From: Acetivibrionales bacterium
GTDB lineage: Bacteria; Bacillota; Clostridia; Acetivibrionales; DTU013
Reading direction: 5' to 3'
NCBI GenBank assembly: GCA_050952225.1
Contig: JBMNKL010000001.1
Coordinates: forward strand, 494,589-558,588
Length of the DNA: 64,000 nucleotides
Part shown: piece after piece, positions 1 to 37,711 of the stretch
Position numbering within the stretch: the stretch's first letter is position 1
How the letters are laid out: each line of letters begins with the position of its first letter
Program-made: the position numbers and the translations under genes
The notes under the pieces: model-generated
Database searches by the model: none
Seen by the model: only the letters and a program-made list of their open reading frames with translations
Told to the model about the DNA's origin: nothing

Positions 1-2
1 TA

Positions 3-1535
3 ATGGTGAAGGGGAAGATGTTCAACGAAATACAAGCTTACAAGCAAATAGGATATACAATTAGAAAATGTGCTCGAGTACCGGAATTGACAGAAAAACA
101 GTCCGTAAGTATTGGAATATGAGTGCAGAGGAATATTTAAAATATCTGGCTGCGAGTCGTGAACGGACTAAAATACTTGACCCGTATCGTGAGGAAATTG
201 TTTCAGAGCTTGAAACCTACCGCTAATATCACTTCAGCGATAATTTATGACCATCTGTGTGAGCGGCATGAGGCTTTTGCACCATCATACAGAAGTGTTC
301 GACTTTATGTAATGACCCTGCGTGAAGAGCTTGGTATACCTACAGAGGTAAAAGTCCGCGCAATATACAGAGGTTTCAGACACCCGCCCGGATTTCAGGC
401 TCAGGTGGATATGGGGCAGAAGGTCATGACCGACCCCTTTGGGAGCAAAACAAAAATCTACATATTCGCCATGGTCATGAGTATGTCACGCAAGAAATTC
501 GTGTACTTTCAGGAGCATCCGTTCAGCGCATCAGAATTTGTAGAGGCTCATGATTTGGCATTTAAATATTATGGTGGCCGGACTCAGGAAATTGTCTATG
601 ACCAGGACCGTGTTATGGCGGTTTCAGAGAACGCCGGAGATCTGATTTGACTGAAAACATTTGAAAAACTACAAAAAGTATGCCGGTTTTCAGATCGGCT
701 CTGCCGAGGTTTTGACCCTGAAAGCAAGGGTAAAATCGAAAGTGTTGTTAAATATGTTAAGAACAACTTCTATCCTGCAGGATATATCATGGCATATCTG
801 TATTAAACAGTGAGGGTCTGGCATGGCTTGACCGTACGGCAACGCTAAGGTTCACGAGACAACTAGAATGGTACCAGACAGACTGTTTACGGAAGAAATC
901 AAGCACTTAAAACCAGTACCTACACTGTCGAAGCCTATCGAGCCAAAGTTGGCGATTATTCGCAGACCAATGTGGTGCATTATCGCAGAATCGCTATGAG
1001 GTCCCTAAAGGCACATACTTCCCCGGAAGGCAAGCCAGGATTGAGGCTGACACCCAAAAGGACATGGTTTCTTTTTATGACAAGGAAACCGGGGAATTAC
1101 TGGCGACACACTACCTTGCCCAAGGAGTTGGTAAACTCATTCGACTTTCAAAGAATATGCAGCGTTTCAAGAGACCAAATATGATGAGCTTAAAGATACA
1201 GTATTAAAAAGAATGGACGGGCTAACCTTCGCTGAAGATTACATAGACGCCCTCATAAAAGCGTATCCAGATATGCCCGTGATCAGCTCCGCATAATGAA
1301 TAGCTGCATTGAACAGTACGGGAAGGATGAACTGGAGAATGCCTTAAATTATTGCGTGGAGAGAGATCTGGTAAGCGCAAATGACTTTCGGGACACCTTG
1401 GCATTCTTCAGGGTGGACGAGCCGAAGATTATTCCAAAGCAGTTTACTTTGCCGGAAAAATATCAGATGGTGAAACCTAAAGTTAGAAGCGTTGAAAACT
1501 ATATACAATCCGGGAAGGGAGGCAGAAGCATATGA
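3..1535 (+). pseudogene. istA: IS21-family transposase IstA, split over several frames
   Basis: Pieces in three frames: N-terminal HTH (MFNEIQAYKQIGYTIRKCA), the DDE region (QVDMGQK...IYIFAMVMSMSRKKFVYF, ORF 159-650), a middle part (YEVPKGTYFPGRQARIEADTQKDMVSFYDKETGELLATH) and the C-terminus (ORF 1296-1535). At least 3 frameshifts or stops. Confidence 0.8.
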
Positions 1536-2306: not shown

Positions 2307-3448
2307 GTAACACTAAGCCTGGAGGCAATATTTTAACGAAGACGAGATCGAATGGAGATATACTATTTTATAATAAAGCAAACAATGAATTTGCTGTAAA
2401 AGCCTCCGATGAAACAATAAGAACTTATTTTAAACCGACTGATGGCGTTGACGGCAACCCGGTATTAACCATAGAGACAGCCGCATGCAATATACGGTAT
2501 GCGGGAGAGTACCTTGACAAAGAAACGGGCCTGTATTACCTCAGGGCGAGGTATTACAACCCGTACATAGGGAGATTCATATCCGAGGACAGCTACTGGG
2601 GCGAGGACGACAACCCCTTGAGCCTGAACCTGTACACATACTGCTTCAATGACCCCATCCGCTTCATCGACCCGACAGGACATGATCCTTATGACGAAAT
2701 TATCGCAAATGCAAGAACACAGAGCCAGATTAACTGGATTGTAAATGAGATTAATAAACAAAAAGAGATCTGGTTTGTGGAAGAACAGGGCGCAGGGAAG
2801 AACCAGGCAGCATGGACAGACGCCCAGACAGAAGCCAACAGGAGGGCGGAAACATTCAGGCAGCAACTGATACAGCTTGAATCAGGCAATGCGGACACAC
2901 AGAGGCTGATTAAGGATGATTCAAGAGGAATCGCCGGGGCATGGGAAGGCTATCAGCTATCTGTCACTGCAAGATTGGCGGAAGCAAATCCCGGTAGGGA
3001 TTACAGCGATATGATAAGACGGCAGGCACAGGATTATGCACTGGCAGAGAAATATGGCAGGAATGTGATAGGCATTGATGCAAGTATGATTACAGAAGAG
3101 ACCAGGACAGCTGTAGAAAGGTTTGCTGAAGATATAGTTGCAATTTACCGAATAAGTATGGCTGTAAATTCATTATTAGCAGAAGGATATGGAGACTTCG
3201 AGAGCGTACTTGTAACTGCGGATAGTGGTAGAATTGTTTTCCCAGGACCGATTTTTGCATACAGAGGAAATGATTTTCTTCTGTTATCTTATACAGATAC
3301 AAAAACGAGTACCGAACAGGTTAAATCAGCAGAAGAACTGTTGATTGATTTGATAAAGTGTATAGAAAGCTATCCGAAGGCTAAAAAGCACATATTGGGG
3401 TTTTTGGGAATCAGATCAAAAGAGCGGGCGAGGACGACAACCCCTTAA
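2307..3448 (+). pseudogene. RHS repeat-associated core plus C-terminal tip 1; the 5' body is removed or displaced by the IS21 element
   Basis: YAGEYLDKETGLYYLRARYYNPYIGRFISEDS...NLYTYCFNDPIRFIDPTGH is the canonical RHS core end (DPxGH/L). About 255 aa follow it. The reading frame runs directly out of the IS end, so no native start is present. Confidence 0.75.
2599..3025 (+). repeat. 427-bp direct repeat, copy 1 (RHS core end plus 125-codon conserved post-core segment)
   Basis: Aligns without gaps to 3426-3852 at a constant offset of 827 nt. Most columns are identical, with one more divergent patch near 2799-2835. Confidence 0.9.
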
Positions 3449-3852
3449 GCCTGAACCTGTACACATACTGCTTCAATGACCCCATCCGCTTCATCGACCC
3501 GACAGGACATGATCCTTATGACAAAATTATCGCAAATGCAAGAACACAGAGTCAGATTAACTGGATTATAAATGAGATTAATAAACAAAAAGAGATCTGG
3601 TTTGTGGAAGAACAGGGCGCAGGGAAGGATCAAACATCATGGACGGGTGCCCAGACGGAAGCGAACAGGAGGGCGGAAACACTCAGGCAGCAACTGATAC
3701 AGCTTGAATCAGGCAATGCGGACACACAGAGGCTGATCAAGGACGATTCAAAGGGAATAGCCGGGGCATGGGAAGGCTATCAGCTATCTGTCACTGCAAG
3801 ATTGGCGGAAGCAAATCCCGGTAGGGATTACAGCGATATGATAAGACGGCAG
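3426..3852 (+). repeat. 427-bp direct repeat, copy 2
   Basis: Same as above. It starts 20 nt before the stop codon of the first cassette and lies in a different reading frame. Confidence 0.9.
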
Positions 3853-5139
3853 TCCATTGGTTATGCGCTTGCTATTGCTTTAGGACGAAATGCTGTTGGT
3901 ATACACGCAAGCGATATTGTGGAGATTAACAAGACAAAAGAAGAGACATTTGTGAGTATAATAAACTGTGATCTGGAAAGATACTTTGCTCCTAAAGTAG
4001 AGCAAAAAGATTTGCTGGCATCAACTAAGCCTAATACAGGGAATCTCAACTTGTTTATTGATGGAATGAGAATAGAAGGGGCAGAAGTAATAAATGGTTC
4101 TGCATATGCAGATATCAAAAAAATAGCTAAGGCATTAAGATATAAGATTTCTGAAGATGATGATCAAATATCATTATATTATTTTGATGAAAATGGAGCT
4201 AAATTCACAATATCATACAAAAAGGAAGGCTGGCTTAAAAGAAATGGAAGTCTAATTGTTAAGGTAAGAGAGCTTGCTGAGTTTAGAGGTTACGGAGATA
4301 CTATAAGTTGGTGGCATGACAAAACGAATAAGCTTAATGTTACTGTTAATCCAAGCATGAAGTATGCACCAATAAAAGTTATAAGACAAGAAAACGTTGT
4401 AGAAATAGCCGCATACATAAATTTTATAGGCGATTCAAAAGAGTTAATGCCTTCAACAGCATTCTCTTACGCAGAAATTGCTGCTGCAGGTATTGAAGTA
4501 GATTGGGCTGGGAACTATTCGGTAGACGGAAAGAGGATTAGCTTAACTACAAAAGTTTATAGCCACAATGCTAGTCAGAATAATATAATACAGAAAGCTG
4601 AATTAGGTTCTTCTACAAAACAAAAGTATATAGACTTCGAAATAAAAGATGAAGTTGGTAGGTCGCGTCAAATGGACGGGAATTTGATTTCTATAGTAGG
4701 GGATTATCTTATAGGAGATAGATATAAGTCTGGTGATCCAATATATGATAACTGGTCAATTGCAAATCCCGGTAAGGTAACACTCTATACAAAGACAAAA
4801 TATAGTAATGTCAAGTATGATCCTAATGATCCTTCGACATATAAAACATATACGCAAAGGGAACTTAGTAATGTTGCTTCTCATGAATTTGGGCACTTAC
4901 TAGGACTTGGTGATGCTTATGGAGAAAAAGGATATCGGTATGCTGCACCAGAATATTATATCTTGCAAGATGGAAGTATTTTGTGGATGCCGTCCGACGA
5001 TAAAATGAGAAGTTCACAAGGAAATGTTAGCGATATAGATATAATGTTCATGCTTAAAGCTTGGGAGATGAATATATTTCAGCCATTCCCAGAGACATCC
5101 AGTTACCAATTTTCGCCGGGTTCTACAAGTACCCAATAA
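3427..5139 (+). CDS. Orphan RHS C-terminal cassette 2 with a metzincin-like zinc-metallopeptidase domain (putative toxin)
   Basis: Frame is open from 3385. It encodes GEDDNPLSLNLYTYCFNDPIRFIDPTGH (a partial core end only), then a payload containing HEFGHLLGLGD at 4882-4914. There is no ATG or RBS upstream; the ORF track start at 3604 is an internal GTG. The region from about 3900 onward is visibly AT-rich. Confidence 0.7.
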   Translation, partial: GEDDNPLSLNLYTYCFNDPIRFIDPTGHDPYDKIIANARTQSQINWIINEINKQKEIWFVEEQGAGKDQTSWTGAQTEANRRAETLRQQLIQLESGNADTQRLIKDDSKGIAGAWEGYQLSVTARLAEANPGRDYSDMIRRQSIGYALAIALGRNAVGIHASDIVEINKTKEETFVSIINCDLERYFAPKVEQKDLLASTKPNTGNLNLFIDGMRIEGAEVINGSAYADIKKIAKALRYKISEDDDQISLYYFDENGAKFTISYKKEGWLKRNGSLIVKVRELAEFRGYGDTISWWHDKTNKLNVTVNPSMKYAPIKVIRQENVVEIAAYINFIGDSKELMPSTAFSYAEIAAAGIEVDWAGNYSVDGKRISLTTKVYSHNASQNNIIQKAELGSSTKQKYIDFEIKDEVGRSRQMDGNLISIVGDYLIGDRYKSGDPIYDNWSIANPGKVTLYTKTKYSNVKYDPNDPSTYKTYTQRELSNVASHEFGHLLGLGDAYGEKGYRYAAPEYYILQDGSILWMPSDDKMRSSQGNVSDIDIMFMLKAWEMNIFQPFPETSSYQFSPGSTSTQ

Positions 5140-5198
5140 TTGTTTATAAAAATATTGAATATATTTGTAAAGTATTTCTTACATGGAGGGATAAATAA

Positions 5199-5708
5199 GT
5201 GAATAAAAGGACCGTAGTATTAATTCTAATTATAATATCTATTTTGGCAGTGGCATTGGCAAATAGTATTGTGGGGGTTTACAATCTAGTATCATATAAG
5301 TACTTAATGCGTGTATTGCCGGTAATCGGGATAATATTTCTGATCCTTGGCGTGATATTATTTGTATTAAAAAAAGTGAAATATATTATGATTATTTCTG
5401 CATTTTTTATTTTGGCATTATATATCTCAGACATTATTAGTGTAATGTTTATTAATAACCAACGTCAAAATATTTTTAACGATGGTACTCTAATTGCCGG
5501 TGCAATTGAAAGATATTATGAAGATAACAATAAGTATCCAAAGGATTTAGATGAGTTAATTCCAAAATATATTGACAGTATCCCTAAGATAAAAACTACA
5601 TACGATGAGGGAGACTTCACATATTACATTACTGAGGGCGGAAAATCCTACTTTTTAGGTTTTGAAAACTATTATTATGATGGAATTGGTTGGATTGAGG
5701 CAGAATAA
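5199..5708 (+). CDS. Small multi-pass membrane protein; candidate cognate immunity protein for cassette 2
   Basis: 169 aa with three hydrophobic helices, then a soluble tail (GAIERYYEDNNKYPKDLDELIPKYIDSIP). GTG start preceded by GGAGGG. It sits immediately downstream of the toxin cassette and shares its low GC. Confidence 0.45.
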   Translation: MNKRTVVLILIIISILAVALANSIVGVYNLVSYKYLMRVLPVIGIIFLILGVILFVLKKVKYIMIISAFFILALYISDIISVMFINNQRQNIFNDGTLIAGAIERYYEDNNKYPKDLDELIPKYIDSIPKIKTTYDEGDFTYYITEGGKSYFLGFENYYYDGIGWIEAE

Positions 5709-5895: not shown

Positions 5896-5972
5896 GGCGG
5901 CGTAGCTCAGGTGGCTAGAGCATGCGGTTCATACCCGCAGTGTCGTTGGTTCAAATCCGACCGCCGCTACCA
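5896..5972 (+). tRNA. tRNA-Met (anticodon CAT), elongator-like, CCA encoded
   Basis: Cloverleaf read by eye: GGCGGCG acceptor stem, TAGCTCAGGTGGCTAGAGC D-arm, TTCATAC anticodon loop, GGTTCAAATCC T-arm, 3' CCA. Confidence 0.9.
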
Positions 5973-5985
5973 TAACGAATTATCT

Positions 5986-6060
5986 GGCCCATTGGTCAAG
6001 CGGTTAAGACACCGCCCTTTCACGGCGGCGACAGGGGTTCGATTCCCCTATGGGTCACCA
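5986..6060 (+). tRNA. tRNA-Glu (anticodon TTC), CCA encoded
   Basis: GGCCCAT acceptor stem, CTTTCAC anticodon loop, GGTTCGATTCC T-arm, CCA. Confidence 0.9.
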
Positions 6061-6392: not shown

Positions 6393-8961
6393 ATGGAGGG
6401 AACGAGTGTGGGCAGACGTGTAAAGATAACAGTTATTCTTGCCGTTGTGGCGATAATAGCCTTGGCTATTCCCCTTGGAGTATTCTCCCGGGAAACCGTA
6501 CCGGGTATCATGACTGCCGCAGACGAAGGACCGGAAGATCAGAACTGCGGCATAAACAATGACGGGAGCGGCAGAAGCGGCGATACGGACATTATACGCG
6601 AAAGGCTTAATGAAAGCGTCATTTTATACGTTGGAAGCCCGGTCGCGTATGTAAAAGGAGTCGAAACACGTATAGACCCGGGCAATATCGAAGTCACCCC
6701 TGTTATTAGCGATAATGTGGAGATGGTGCCTGTCAGGTTTATTGCGGAAAGCCTGGGAGGCAGCGTCCGGTGGGATCAGGACAGCCTTTCCGCCACTGTC
6801 ATTCTGGACGGCAGGAGCTATAAATTTACGCAGGGCAGCAGCATTATGCTGGCGGGCGGTTCAAGTTATCCCCTCGGCGCAGAGGTATGGGCGTACAAGG
6901 GAAGGACTTTTGTACCGCTGGATAAATTCGTTAAGGCGCTTGGCAAAAAGGTTTTTTACGACAGGGGCCTTATTATTATAAGTGATGATGAAGTTGCTCT
7001 CGACACTGAAAAAGACAAGGAACTTATAAGCGAGTGGATTGCGAAATTGAGTTATCTCCCCGCAGTGGGCTCCCGCGATAAACTGCTGAGCCTGCTGGAA
7101 GAGGGGCAGAAAAGAGGAACTGGTGATTATATAGAGATAATATTGCCCCAGGTGGATACGGGTATATCCGTGGAGAAAGAAATAGCAGCCTGGGAAGCGG
7201 AAGGTTCATCGACGCCGGGCATTGCAAACCAGGCGGCTAAGGTTGCGGAAAGTCCGGCTGCGGATATGGCGGTGGCAGATCCATCCGGTCGGGAGCAGGA
7301 TTATTCCACAACCAATGTCCAGGTTCAAGGCGTTGATGAGGGAGATATAGTAAAGACGGACGGCAATTATATATACCAGGTCAGCAAAAGAAGGGTGGTT
7401 ATCGCAAAAGTCGATAATCCGGACAACATGGAAATTGCCGGTATCCTGGATTACACCGATAAAAACCTGACTCCGCAGGAGCTGTACCTGCACGATGAGA
7501 AGTTGGTTGTCATAGGTTCTTCGAAAGCGTATTTCCCAATATATAAAACGAAAGACGGCGTCCGGACCGAAATATATCCTTCGCCGCGTTATTCGCAAAA
7601 CAGCGTTAAGTTATTGATATATGACATTTCGGACAAGAAAAATGCCAGGCTGGTCCGGGAGGTTGAACTGGAGGGGAAGTTACGTATCGTCAAGAAAGAT
7701 CGGTCCGGCGGTTTATCTTGTAGCCAATGATTATATTAACTATTACCGCATTCAGGACAACGTTCCGGATGATGAGCCGAATATTACGCCATACTACCGG
7801 GATACTGCGGAAAAGGATGAATATAAAAGCATAGGCTACGATTCGATACGCTATTTCCCTGGAGCGATACATGATAATTACATGATTGTTGCCGGAATTG
7901 ATGTTGACGGGAACGAGCCTGCCAATGTTTCCACGTACTTGGGGGCAGGCCAGAATATCTATGCGTCGCCGGAAAACCTGTATGTGGCTGTGACAAGCTA
8001 TTCCCGGATTTATTCCAAAAGGGGCTATGAAGAAAAAACACAAATATATAAATTCGGCATGAAAGATGCGAAACTTACATACTTATGCAAGGGCGAGGTG
8101 CCCGGCATCATACTTAACCAGTTTTCCATGGATGAGTACGGCGGTAGCTTCCGCATGGCGACTACAAAGGGCAGCATATGGGCTGCGGATGAGAGAATTT
8201 CCAAGAACTGCTTATACGTAACGGACAGCATGCTTTCCATTACGGGCAGTATAGAAGACATGGCGCCCGGCGAAAGGATTTACTCTGTCCGCTTCATGGG
8301 CGACAGGGCATATGTAGTGACATTCAAGACGGTAGACCCGCTCTTTGTGATTGACCTGAAAGACCCGAAAAAGCCGGCTATCCTGGGAGCTTTAAAGATA
8401 CCGGGGTACAGCGATTACCTCCATCCTTACGACGAAAACCACATTATAGGCTTCGGGAAGGATACTGTTGAGATAAAAGGCCAGGCTTATTACCAGGGTA
8501 TGAAGGCTGCGCTGTTTGATGTGACCGATGTAAGCAACCCGGTGCAAAAGTTTGCCGAAATAATCGGAGACAGGGGTACGGATTCCGAGCTTCTCAGCAA
8601 CCACAAGGCGCTTCTTTTCTCGAAAGAGAAGAACCTGCTGGCATTCCCCGTGACATTGATGGAAATCAAGGACGCCGGTGAAACGGGAATGAATGCACTT
8701 GAATACGGAGAATTCACGTTCCAGGGCGCCCTGGTGTATAGCCTGGATCTTGAAAACGGGTTCAAGTTAAGGGGCAGGATAACCCACCTTTCCGGCGATG
8801 ATTATTTAAAAGCTGGAAGGTACTGGTACGACAGTGACAAGAATATCAGGAGAATCATCTATATAGGCGATAATTTGTTTACCCTTTCAAATAGCATGAT
8901 CAAGGCAAATGCATTGGAGGATTTGGCAGAGAAGGGCAGCGTTGCGATACCGCAGGCTTGA
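6393..8961 (+). pseudogene. Secreted beta-propeller-domain protein (COG4880-like) with a copper-amine-oxidase-N-like domain; one frameshift near 7675
   Basis: Signal anchor (ILAVVAIIALAI). A VPVRFIAESLGGSVRWDQDSLSATVILDG stalk-type domain. ORFs 6393-7730 and 7621-8961 overlap in adjacent frames, and the sense reading ...VELEG/SYVSSRKIGPAVYLVANDY joins at a GGGGAA run. Confidence 0.7.
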
Positions 8962-36820: not shown

Positions 36821-36934
36821 AGGCTTGGATATAAATGCCGTTGAAAATGAAGTGAAAATATCCACGCAAAAATTTGTCCATGGTATTGACATGGACAGTG
36901 ATTTGATGCTAGTATGTGTGCAGTAACTGAATAT

Positions 36935-37117
36935 AATCTTCAGGGCAGGGTGAAATTCCCGACCGGCGGTGATGCGGCAAATGAGCCGTTAGCCCGCGAG
37001 CGTAAGCAGACCCGGTGAGATTCCGGGGCCGACAGTATAGTCTGGATGGGAGAAGATTTTTATTTGCTTTTGGGTAGCATCTATTCCCTGGGATTATATT
37101 CCGGGGAATTTTATTTT
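36935..37117 (+). promoter_or_regulatory. FMN riboswitch (RFN element) with terminator expression platform
   Basis: Aptamer 36935-37058: CTTCAGGGCAGGGTGAAATTCCCGACCGGCGGT...AGCCCGCGAGC...GGTGAGATTCCGGGGCCGACAGTATAGTCTGGATGGGAGAAGAT matches the RFN consensus. Terminator ATTCCCTGG/CCGGGGAAT plus TTTTATTTT at 37083-37117. TTGACA-N18-TAGTAT promoter lies upstream. Confidence 0.95.
37083..37117 (+). terminator. Terminator stem of the FMN riboswitch expression platform
   Basis: ATTCCCTGG / CCGGGGAAT (9 bp including one G-U pair), 9-nt loop, then TTTTATTTT. Confidence 0.8.
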
Positions 37118-37135
37118 ACAGGGGGGTTTTTATCA

Positions 37136-37711
37136 ATGAAGTTTGGCGTAAAAAAATTGGCGACGATGGCAGTACTGTCAGCACTTTCAATCGCACTGAT
37201 GCTGCTTATCAAGTTTCCGCTCATACCGGCTGCTCCTTACTTAATTTATGAGCCGGCCGATGTGCCCATTTTTATCGGCGCATTCTTATTCGGACCCATG
37301 GCAGGCCTTTTGATTACAGTTGTTGTATCAGCTATTCAGGCTTCAATGAGTCCCGACGGATGGGTTGGCTTTGTCATGCACGTATTGGCTACCGGCACAT
37401 TTGTTGTTTTGGCGGGACTGATATACAGGAAGCTGCATAATATTAAAGGGGCAATTATTGCCCTGGTATCCGGAACGATAGCAATGACGTTAATCATGAT
37501 ACCGGCTAATTTAGTGATTCAGACACTTTTCCGTGACATGGAATTTGCCGCAGTTGCCAAATTGCTTATCCCGGTTATCATACCTTTTAACCTTTTAAAG
37601 GCGGGACTCAACTCAATAATAACTTTTGTAGTATATAAAAGAATAAGCAACATATTCCACAGGCTGCTGAAAGATACTGCTGCGCCGGCAACTTCTTCCT
37701 GTGAAGAATGA
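37136..37711 (+). CDS. ribU: ECF S-component of the riboflavin-transporter (RibU) type
   Basis: Directly controlled by the FMN riboswitch. S-component topology. The ATG at 37136 lies after the terminator, while the ORF track start at 37046 lies inside the aptamer. Confidence 0.8.
   Translation: MKFGVKKLATMAVLSALSIALMLLIKFPLIPAAPYLIYEPADVPIFIGAFLFGPMAGLLITVVVSAIQASMSPDGWVGFVMHVLATGTFVVLAGLIYRKLHNIKGAIIALVSGTIAMTLIMIPANLVIQTLFRDMEFAAVAKLLIPVIIPFNLLKAGLNSIITFVVYKRISNIFHRLLKDTAAPATSSCEE

Follow-up and report, generated by a model that had tools for sequence, protein, structure and literature searches.

The 64-kb window analysed here (the whole stretch of 64,000 nt of contig JBMNKL010000001.1, whose host is placed as a Clostridia-class bacterium from anaerobic digesters) opens with the 3′ part of an IS21-family insertion sequence (IS) element, which is followed at 2313–5708 by a series of partial RHS genes with associated open reading frames (ORFs), all on the + strand. 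This region probably forms the distal part of a polymorphic-toxin locus of the RHS class (YD-repeat, WapA-type), consisting of a partly decayed tandem array of displaced orphan tips. The product of a full-length Rhs gene encloses its own C-terminal toxin, or tip, in a shell of YD repeats; the tip is cleaved off by the core after a DPxG(H/L) motif, and the Rhs immunity protein is encoded by the gene next after the tip. Recombination of a new tip and immunity gene into the 3′ terminus of the main gene displaces the resident tip downstream, where it keeps a core stub without a start codon or secretion part. The array in the window comprises three toxin-tip remnants, two of which are broken with only cassette 2 intact, and a single surviving protection gene. 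An earlier note on this DNA had described a two-cassette array; there are three remnants, and what it took for the tip of the first cassette is a stump left by a 1,957-bp deletion. The features were confirmed at the coordinates given below, well above chance level.

The end of an RHS core, which that note had recognised, was recovered by profile search. Core stub 1 (2453–2683) represents the last 77 codons of the RHS-associated core (GNPVLT...DPIRFIDPTGH), matched TIGR03696 Rhs_assc_core with 83.5 bits (E 1e-23; cut-off 32.5) over ~2477–2684, and also matched the core ends of TccC3, YenC2 and Rhs in the PDB at E ~1e-8. It is part of ORF1, which runs from inside the IS through the core to a TAA stop codon at 3446–3448. 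The DPTGH cleavage motif (2669–2683) is followed by a linker of 113 codons (copy 1, 2684–3022) and then by the first 134 codons of the tip-1-specific region (3023–3425). A second core stub, containing the last 27–28 core codons (GEDDNPLSLNLYTYCFNDPIRFIDPTGH, 3426–3510), starts 20 nt before the ORF1 stop codon and is in frame 1, versus frame 2 for ORF1, just as had been noted before; it gave a partial TIGR03696 match (24.5 bits, profile positions 55–76) and continues into linker copy 2 (3511–3849, 95% identical to copy 1).

Alignment of the two copies showed a direct repeat of 424 nt (2599–3022 and 3426–3849, 404/424 positions identical, 95%), which spans the last 27 core codons plus the 113 codons beyond DPTGH, and hence covers more than the core end as which it had originally been read. 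The linker has no Pfam match and is restricted to this lineage: in a collection of 1.84 billion proteins, 12 cluster representatives matched it. The C-terminal part of a 3,293-aa RHS protein of a sister strain contains a related linker (57% identical over 60 aa), which precedes the tip of that protein, and copies of the core-plus-linker repeat that are joined to a long shell elsewhere are 94–97% identical to those in the window.

The sister strain, L001, is represented by a 268-kb Joint Genome Institute (JGI) metagenome contig, which was reached through the tip-2 homologue P0007 and is syntenic with the window at 95–99% nucleotide identity. Its locus starts with the end of the 3,293-aa RHS gene, which is intact, lies on the same strand as cassette 2 and ends ~8.3 kb upstream of it, followed by a 130-aa gene and small ORFs, a truncated copy of the same IS21 element and an IS110 fragment. 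Next come an RHS shell fragment of ~650 aa that is continuous with core, linker and tip 1 (together a 710-aa ORF), a gene for a 263-aa lipoprotein, cassette 2 starting from HYDYDIFGNPVLT and carrying a second IS21-family element in tip 2, a homologue of ORF3, and genes for tRNA-Met and tRNA-Glu. Window positions 2452–3425 correspond to L001 6892–7865 (99.5% identical) and positions 3426–4994 to L001 9823–11391 (98.5% identical), both without gaps, while the 1,957 bp at L001 7866–9822 are absent from the window. What is missing comprises the remainder of tip 1, the lipoprotein gene behind it and the initial 168 nt of the core stub of cassette 2.

The blastn map and the junction sequences locate the deletion scar at 3425/3426 (...AAAAGAGC / GGGCGAGG...), with no homology at the junction, and the undeleted arrangement is kept in four other digester contigs (L082–L085). 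The second core copy is in another frame because of this deletion, which puts core stub 2 out of frame and extends ORF1 by 20 nt to its stop codon. Since tip 1 runs on past ...GFLGIRSKE, where the tip 1 of the window breaks off, both in the homologue P0004 (99% identical) and in the 710-aa ORF of L001, the tip 1 in the window is a stump without toxin domain. In P0004, tip 1 ends in a Phage_lysozyme2 domain (PF18013, 61 bits). The tip-1 toxin domain of L001, having no Pfam match, was not called a lysozyme; only the P0004 variant is one. Programmed frameshifting across 3385–3448 was another candidate explanation that was rejected, as ORF1 itself lacks a legitimate start and the junction results from a deletion.

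Cassette 2 contains a complete, AT-rich tip-specific region of 429 codons (tip 2, 3850–5139). The frame of tip 2 is open from 3385 to 5139 (571 codons) with no ATG, GTG or TTG codon before the GTG at 3604, in agreement with the earlier suggestion that tip 2 has no start of its own. The GTG at 3604 is located inside the repeated linker, and the same GTG with its upstream sequence is also found in linker copy 1 of ORF1. Homologues of tip 2 are very scarce: a search of 5.8 billion proteins gave 5, one of them from Herbivorax sp. and located directly after an RHS core end. The sequence HEFGHLLGLGD (4882–4914) fits the metzincin zinc-binding motif HExxHxxGxx(H/D), the pattern HEFGHxLGLxDAY...DxMR is conserved in the homologues that reach the motif (P0007, P0121 and P0122), and the C-terminus of tip 2 aligns end to end with that of P0121. 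Scores with protease models were below the curated thresholds (Peptidase_M10, 20.1 vs 24; M6 TIGR03296, 21.3 vs 110.8; TIGR03952, 15.4 vs 208), and the top Foldseek matches were the catalytic domains of ADAM17/TACE and ADAM10 (E 3e-4, template modelling score ~0.25, using an AlphaFold model with a mean predicted local distance difference test score of 59). Together these features suggest, with moderate confidence, that tip 2 is probably a metzincin-like zinc protease toxin.

The tip-2-specific region shows 2 differences per 1,143 nt when compared with L001 and ORF3 shows one, which is too few for calculation of the ratio of non-synonymous to synonymous substitutions (dN/dS). The element interrupting the 3′ part of tip 2 in L001 (11432–13821) is an IS21-family member unrelated to the one at the left edge of the window, encoding a 512-aa IstA and IstB, with TGT...ACA ends and an 8-bp duplication of its target (ATACCGTC); in the window, this site is not interrupted (ATGCCGTC, ~4987–4994).

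The gene downstream of tip 2 is ORF3 (5199–5708), which begins 59 nt after tip 2 with its own GGAGGG Shine-Dalgarno sequence and a GTG startcodon. It encodes a 169-aa protein with, as judged from sequence and hydropathy, three N-terminal hydrophobic segments and an 80-aa C-terminal domain, for which no family match was obtained in Pfam or NCBIfam. ORF3 adjoins tip 2 in L001 despite the intervening IS, and it is 99% identical in contig L160, where it is located behind a tip 2 gutted by an in-frame deletion of 954 nt that removed the protease part; the linkage between ORF3 and tip 2 thus holds in three strains. ORF3 is the probable immunity gene for tip 2, and probably is still expressed and may protect its host against neighbours deploying tip 2. 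An immunity gene outlasting its lost toxin is typical of polymorphic-toxin loci. The three immunity candidates, namely ORF3, the lipoprotein of L001 and a lipoprotein encoded next to the Herbivorax tip-2 homologue, are all extracytoplasmic, which would fit toxins acting on the cell envelope. The ectodomain of ORF3 (5500–5600, residues ~100–130) contains the sequence AIERYYEDNNKYPKDLDELIPKYIDSIPK, which may resemble the conserved segment of type II secretion pseudopilins (GspG-like), with no support from Pfam or NCBIfam.

Comparison of strains for cassette swapping, which the earlier note had proposed, gave a positive result, as the same shell and core (...YDYDIFGNPVLTIETAACNIRYAGEY...DPTGH, 97–99% nucleotide identity) was found joined to different tips in different digester contigs: tip 1 in L001 and L082–84, tip 2 in L160/P0001 with a diverged relative in P0002, and a third tip in L161–164/P0005. 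The L161 module is followed by sequence that is also found downstream of the full-length gene of L001 (92% identical), and therefore probably occupies the main-gene position. Tip swapping is thus seen in the digester population. The core and linker next to tip 2 differ from L001 at 22/423 positions, whereas their identity with the L084 copy in cassette 1 is 99.8%, and this mosaic pattern points to gene conversion within the repeat.

Two further observations were made in these contigs. In L160, shell, core and tip 2 are in a single frame (111–2359), followed by an intact ORF3 and then by the 5′ part of the RHS shell fragment (corresponding to L001 5050–5159), an order of cassettes that differs from both the window and L001. 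The main RHS module is followed on its 3′ side by an ORF of 123–129 aa (L161 3380–3520; region 2552–2923 of L001), which in L161 is accompanied by a small ORF for a CxxC...CxxC zinc ribbon; neither of the two gave a family match above the Pfam cut-offs.

The first remnant of the array, tip 0 (2313–2452), is located between the IS and core stub 1, to which it is joined in frame, and is what is left of a small polymorphic-toxin domain, 46 codons (KPGGNILTKTRSNGDILFYNKANNEFAVKASDETIRTYFKPTDGVD) of its C-terminal part. Its 5′ side was cut by the IS, and the last ~7 codons and the stop codon are gone. The remnant shares 89% identity with the terminus of a 175-aa ORF from a Lacrimispora metagenome-assembled genome (MAG; L002), which ends in ...SDGIDYFYRQK, 78% with a lipoprotein of Thermaerobacillus caldiproteolyticus (L005) and 67% with a sequence from an Ignavibacteriales MAG. 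The Lacrimispora domain matches PDB entry 8ey4_A, a 'PT-VENN domain-containing protein' (E 2.8e-15), and is preceded by a near-threshold PT-TG match (22.3 bits vs a cut-off of 23.5). The gene on its 3′ side encodes a Cys_rich_CPCC protein (PF14206, 103 bits), and the gene at the same position in Thermaerobacillus has only a sub-threshold CPCC match (15.6 bits vs 24.5). Since the homologues precede CPCC immunity-type genes, tip 0 appears to be a genuine toxin end of the PT-VENN/8EY4 type.

The position of tip 0 also clarifies the relation between the IS and the RHS frame, which had been thought to follow one another directly. The IS does end at ~2312, but 46 residues of an unrelated toxin domain intervene before the RHS frame, and homology with L001 begins exactly at core stub 1, at a separate junction (2452/2453). 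Since the IS abuts codons of an unrelated toxin domain and RHS homology starts only at 2453, the IS21 element cut the toxin tip 0 and not the RHS shell.

The composition of the locus varies with its modules. In the window, the GC content is 0.36 in the tip 2 region (3850–5139) and 0.30 in ORF3 (5199–5708), versus 0.46 in the rest of the window; by type of module, values were 0.52 for the shell, 0.49–0.50 for core and linker, 0.34–0.39 for tips and 0.26–0.32 for immunity genes, against a genome background of 0.46. Low GC content of tips and immunity genes next to a GC-richer core is the usual pattern for Rhs, and is compatible with import of the tips, of which it is no proof. The presence of start-less RHS C-terminal cassettes with AT-rich tips in a Clostridia-type genome, as first noted, is borne out. 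None of tip 1, the linker, tip 2 and ORF3 reached the threshold of any Pfam or NCBIfam model, and no RHS shell was found anywhere within the 64-kb window using tblastn. A scan for promoters and terminators was uninformative, with 19 promoter-like sites versus 12.8 ± 3.8 expected.

We propose that the array arose by displacement of successive tips, two of which were subsequently damaged. The 5′ side of tip 0 would have been cut by insertion of IS21, and a second deletion, which also took ~7 codons and the immunity gene, fused its 3′ side in frame to the 77-codon core stub 1. Cassette 1 would originally have consisted of core stub, 113-codon linker and tip 1, of which 134 codons are left after the non-homologous 1,957-bp deletion took the toxin domain and immunity gene. 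Cassette 2 has kept a 27-codon core stub, the linker and the complete 429-codon metzincin-like tip, followed by ORF3. The three tips are presumably silent, because none has a start codon, shell or secretion part, and none of them could be made or exported alone. The core-plus-linker repeat may serve as substrate for moving tip 2 back onto the full-length gene, thereby re-arming it. The lesions found in every strain argue that a large part of the array is being lost.

A more tentative extension, which we regard as possible but rather doubtful, is that the clostridial RHS toxins of this lineage are composed of three exchangeable pieces (shell with core, 113-aa post-cleavage linker, and toxin) that recombine at either boundary, and that the lysozyme-type and metzincin-like payloads act outside the target cell. 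The latter part is suggested by the immunity candidates, which are all membrane-anchored or lipoproteins. If this were true, the mode of delivery would be unlike that of the nuclease tips of WapA or of Rhs proteins of type VI secretion systems (T6SS), which must enter the cytoplasm.

Several observations weigh against a reservoir of displaced tips with a functional protection gene. Because the window opens within the IS, the main RHS gene of its own genome was not seen. The gene after the Herbivorax tip-2 homologue encodes an unrelated lipoprotein without similarity to ORF3, and the argument for ORF3 as immunity gene is solely one of position, while the protease assignment of tip 2 is based on a motif, sub-threshold hidden Markov model matches and a low-confidence structural model. 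All strains examined show heavy decay, and instead of a usable reservoir the array may represent debris. Taken to its full extent, with the whole stretch including ORF3 being non-functional wreckage that offers neither protection nor re-use, this reading is unlikely. It accounts for the two deletion scars and the IS within 3.4 kb of the window, for the independent lesions elsewhere (the IS in tip 2 of L001 and the 954-nt deletion in tip 2 of L160) and for the shattered state of the IS21 copy itself, but it leaves unexplained that tip 2 is open over 571 codons at 36% GC with a C-terminus that aligns end to end with that of a distant homologue, that ORF3 retains its Shine-Dalgarno sequence and start and shows 99% conservation across three strains, even in the absence of the toxin, and that tip 2 is present on a long shell in other contigs. 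The notion that tip 2 is a normal stand-alone gene starting from GTG 3604 originates from the JGI annotation of the sister strain, where gene prediction placed the start of tip 2 (P0007) at the corresponding GTG, and this is a point against a start-less cassette. As that GTG and its upstream sequence also occur in linker copy 1 of ORF1, there is no dedicated start, no convincing Shine-Dalgarno sequence precedes GTG 3604, a protein made from there would have neither shell nor signal and just half of the linker, and the homologues are fused to RHS cores, all of which render a stand-alone gene highly improbable.

The earlier note had further proposed that the IS21 element decapitated the main RHS gene, with the remainder consisting of the shell end with tip 1, plus tip 2 as one silent orphan. 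The proximity of the IS21 end, 140 nt upstream of the core stub, and the single ORF running from inside the IS through tip 1 are in line with this proposal, but the 46 codons beside the IS are from tip 0 and not from a shell, RHS homology starts at the separate junction at 2453, tip 1 is without toxin domain, and the RHS gene of 3,293 aa is intact upstream in L001, making decapitation of the main gene very unlikely. An assembly artefact, with 3425/3426 representing a mis-join between repeated cassettes, deserves consideration in a repetitive region where 14 single-base indels versus L001 in the IS21 part hint at quality problems somewhere. A collapsed repeat would however join homologous positions, and here unique tip-1 sequence is on the left and core sequence on the right of the junction, with the segments 2452–3425 and 3426–4994 each aligning gap-free to L001; we therefore consider a mis-join hardly credible. 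Displacement of tips followed by partial decay remains our preferred interpretation of the locus.

Orphan arrays have been described as a defining feature of Rhs, CdiA and MafB loci (PMC4436062), re-arming by recombination is documented for Salmonella orphans (Koskiniemi et al. 2014, PMC3967940), and a truncated 'Rhs orphan' (CT2) was reported for the wapA locus of Streptococcus suis (PMC12704120). The array had been thought to be less charted in Clostridia; in addition to this published Gram-positive Rhs orphan, 25 out of 157 fetched RHS loci hold at least two co-oriented core ends within 20 kb, such as a Clostridiaceae MAG with an RHS gene of at least 2,972 aa plus two orphans, and Paenibacillus sp. 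YN15 with a 3,398-aa RHS gene plus one orphan. Orphan arrays are thus common in Bacillota genomes, and the array in the window is an ordinary, clearly mapped example.

The array resembles the Rhs orphans of Enterobacteria (E. coli and Salmonella; PMC3967940 and PMC4436062) in having start-less C-terminal cassettes, which as judged from L001 would lie downstream of a full rhs gene, a core stub that gives homology for recombination, AT-rich tips and (putative) immunity genes next to a GC-richer core, and an accumulation of displaced modules. It differs from these in its Gram-positive host, for which delivery would not be by T6SS, in a repeat that reaches 113 codons past DPxGH into a lineage-specific linker, and in two of its three cassettes being deletion stumps. 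With CT2 of the S. suis wapA locus (PMC12704120) it shares an RHS-type toxin of a Gram-positive host and a downstream truncated duplicate without signal or complete core, which is read as a displaced former tip, whereas the tips are metzincin-like in the window and lysozyme-type in sister strains, and the array is longer, IS-interrupted and known from sequence alone. Orphan arrays of CdiA-CT and of Neisseria MafB-CT likewise stack alternative C-terminal toxins and immunity genes after the expressed gene, and the domain family of tip 0 is also found on PT-VENN (CdiA-type) proteins; in contrast, these systems use another carrier protein, and the demarcation motif in the window is the RHS core DPxGH rather than VENN. 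Tip 2 shares HEFGHLLGLGD and a downstream D-x-M-R with metzincins (adamalysin/ADAM and the snapalysin-type HExxHxxGxxD) and with metallopeptidase domains of polymorphic toxins, but it scores under the cut-off of each protease model in Pfam and NCBIfam.

The locus offers a clean example of turnover in polymorphic-toxin loci, in which tips are displaced, trimmed by deletions and IS elements and swapped within a digester population, and in which the immunity gene outlasts the toxin. It also provides two leads, neither of which alters the current understanding of Rhs systems: a metzincin-like RHS payload that is very rare and is paired to a membrane protein, and a linker that is confined to this lineage and belongs to the recombining repeat.

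The IS21-family element covers positions 1–2312 on the + strand, representing the 3′ 2.3 kb of the element as supported by IstB_IS21 and rve matches and an inverted repeat, with the window starting ~108 nt inside the element. The IstB_IS21 match (PF01695) has 105 bits at 2002–2250, and rve was matched in pieces of istA, with a sub-threshold 24.8 bits in one fragment (cut-off 32.6). The istA and istB genes are both frameshifted and broken over many frames, giving >10 short ORFs. The right inverted repeat ends in ...GACAGTAACA at 2312 (to 2314), and can be paired with the left terminus of the copy in L001 (TGTAACTGG...) with a score of 47 versus 14.9 ± 2.7 for shuffled sequences. Window 1–1446 is 98% identical to L001 3020–4471, with 19 substitutions next to the 14 single-base indels, which are not confined to homopolymers, and the shattered copy may represent either a long-dead IS or a local sequence-quality problem in one of the assemblies. 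The left flank of the IS in L001 (TCATGAAG) differs from the flank in the window (CTAAGCCT), and the left end and target-site duplication of the window copy would be outside the window. Searches of a plasmid collection gave only a 67% istA match in Niallia, which was of no help in defining the IS boundaries.

The L001 copy of this IS21 element is inserted in the last codons of the 123-aa ORF described above. The window sequence flanking the right end of the IS at 2313–2325 (CTAAGCCTGGAGG) resembles the empty-site sequence of L161 at 3351–3366 (CTAAAGAAGCCGGAGG) past the L001 insertion point, after which the window and L161 diverge completely; this likeness could be due to chance, target preference or a microhomology-mediated deletion beside the IS.

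On the 3′ side, the cassette-2 unit ends at ~5716 as judged from L160, and is followed by genes for tRNA-Met (CAT, 5896–5972) and tRNA-Glu (TTC, 5986–6060) on the + strand, identified with ARAGORN and Rfam and located outside the array, with tRNA-Met starting 188 nt 3′ of ORF3. The same pair is found 3′ of the ORF3 homologue in L001; the tRNA genes adjoin the array, with no sign of their marking an island boundary. Further downstream, a surface-protein gene with Cu_amine_oxidN1 and beta-propeller domains (6393–8961; ORFs 6393–7730 and 7621–8961) is split by a frameshift near 7672, and its L001 orthologue is also split, at a different site (~16907), representing either independent lesions or sequencing errors. 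Elsewhere in the window, an FMN riboswitch (RF00050, 124 bits) was detected at 36932–37061, upstream of ORF 37046–37711, and a cluster of five tRNA genes (Val, Asp, Phe, Gly and Cys) is located on the + strand at 61767–62419.

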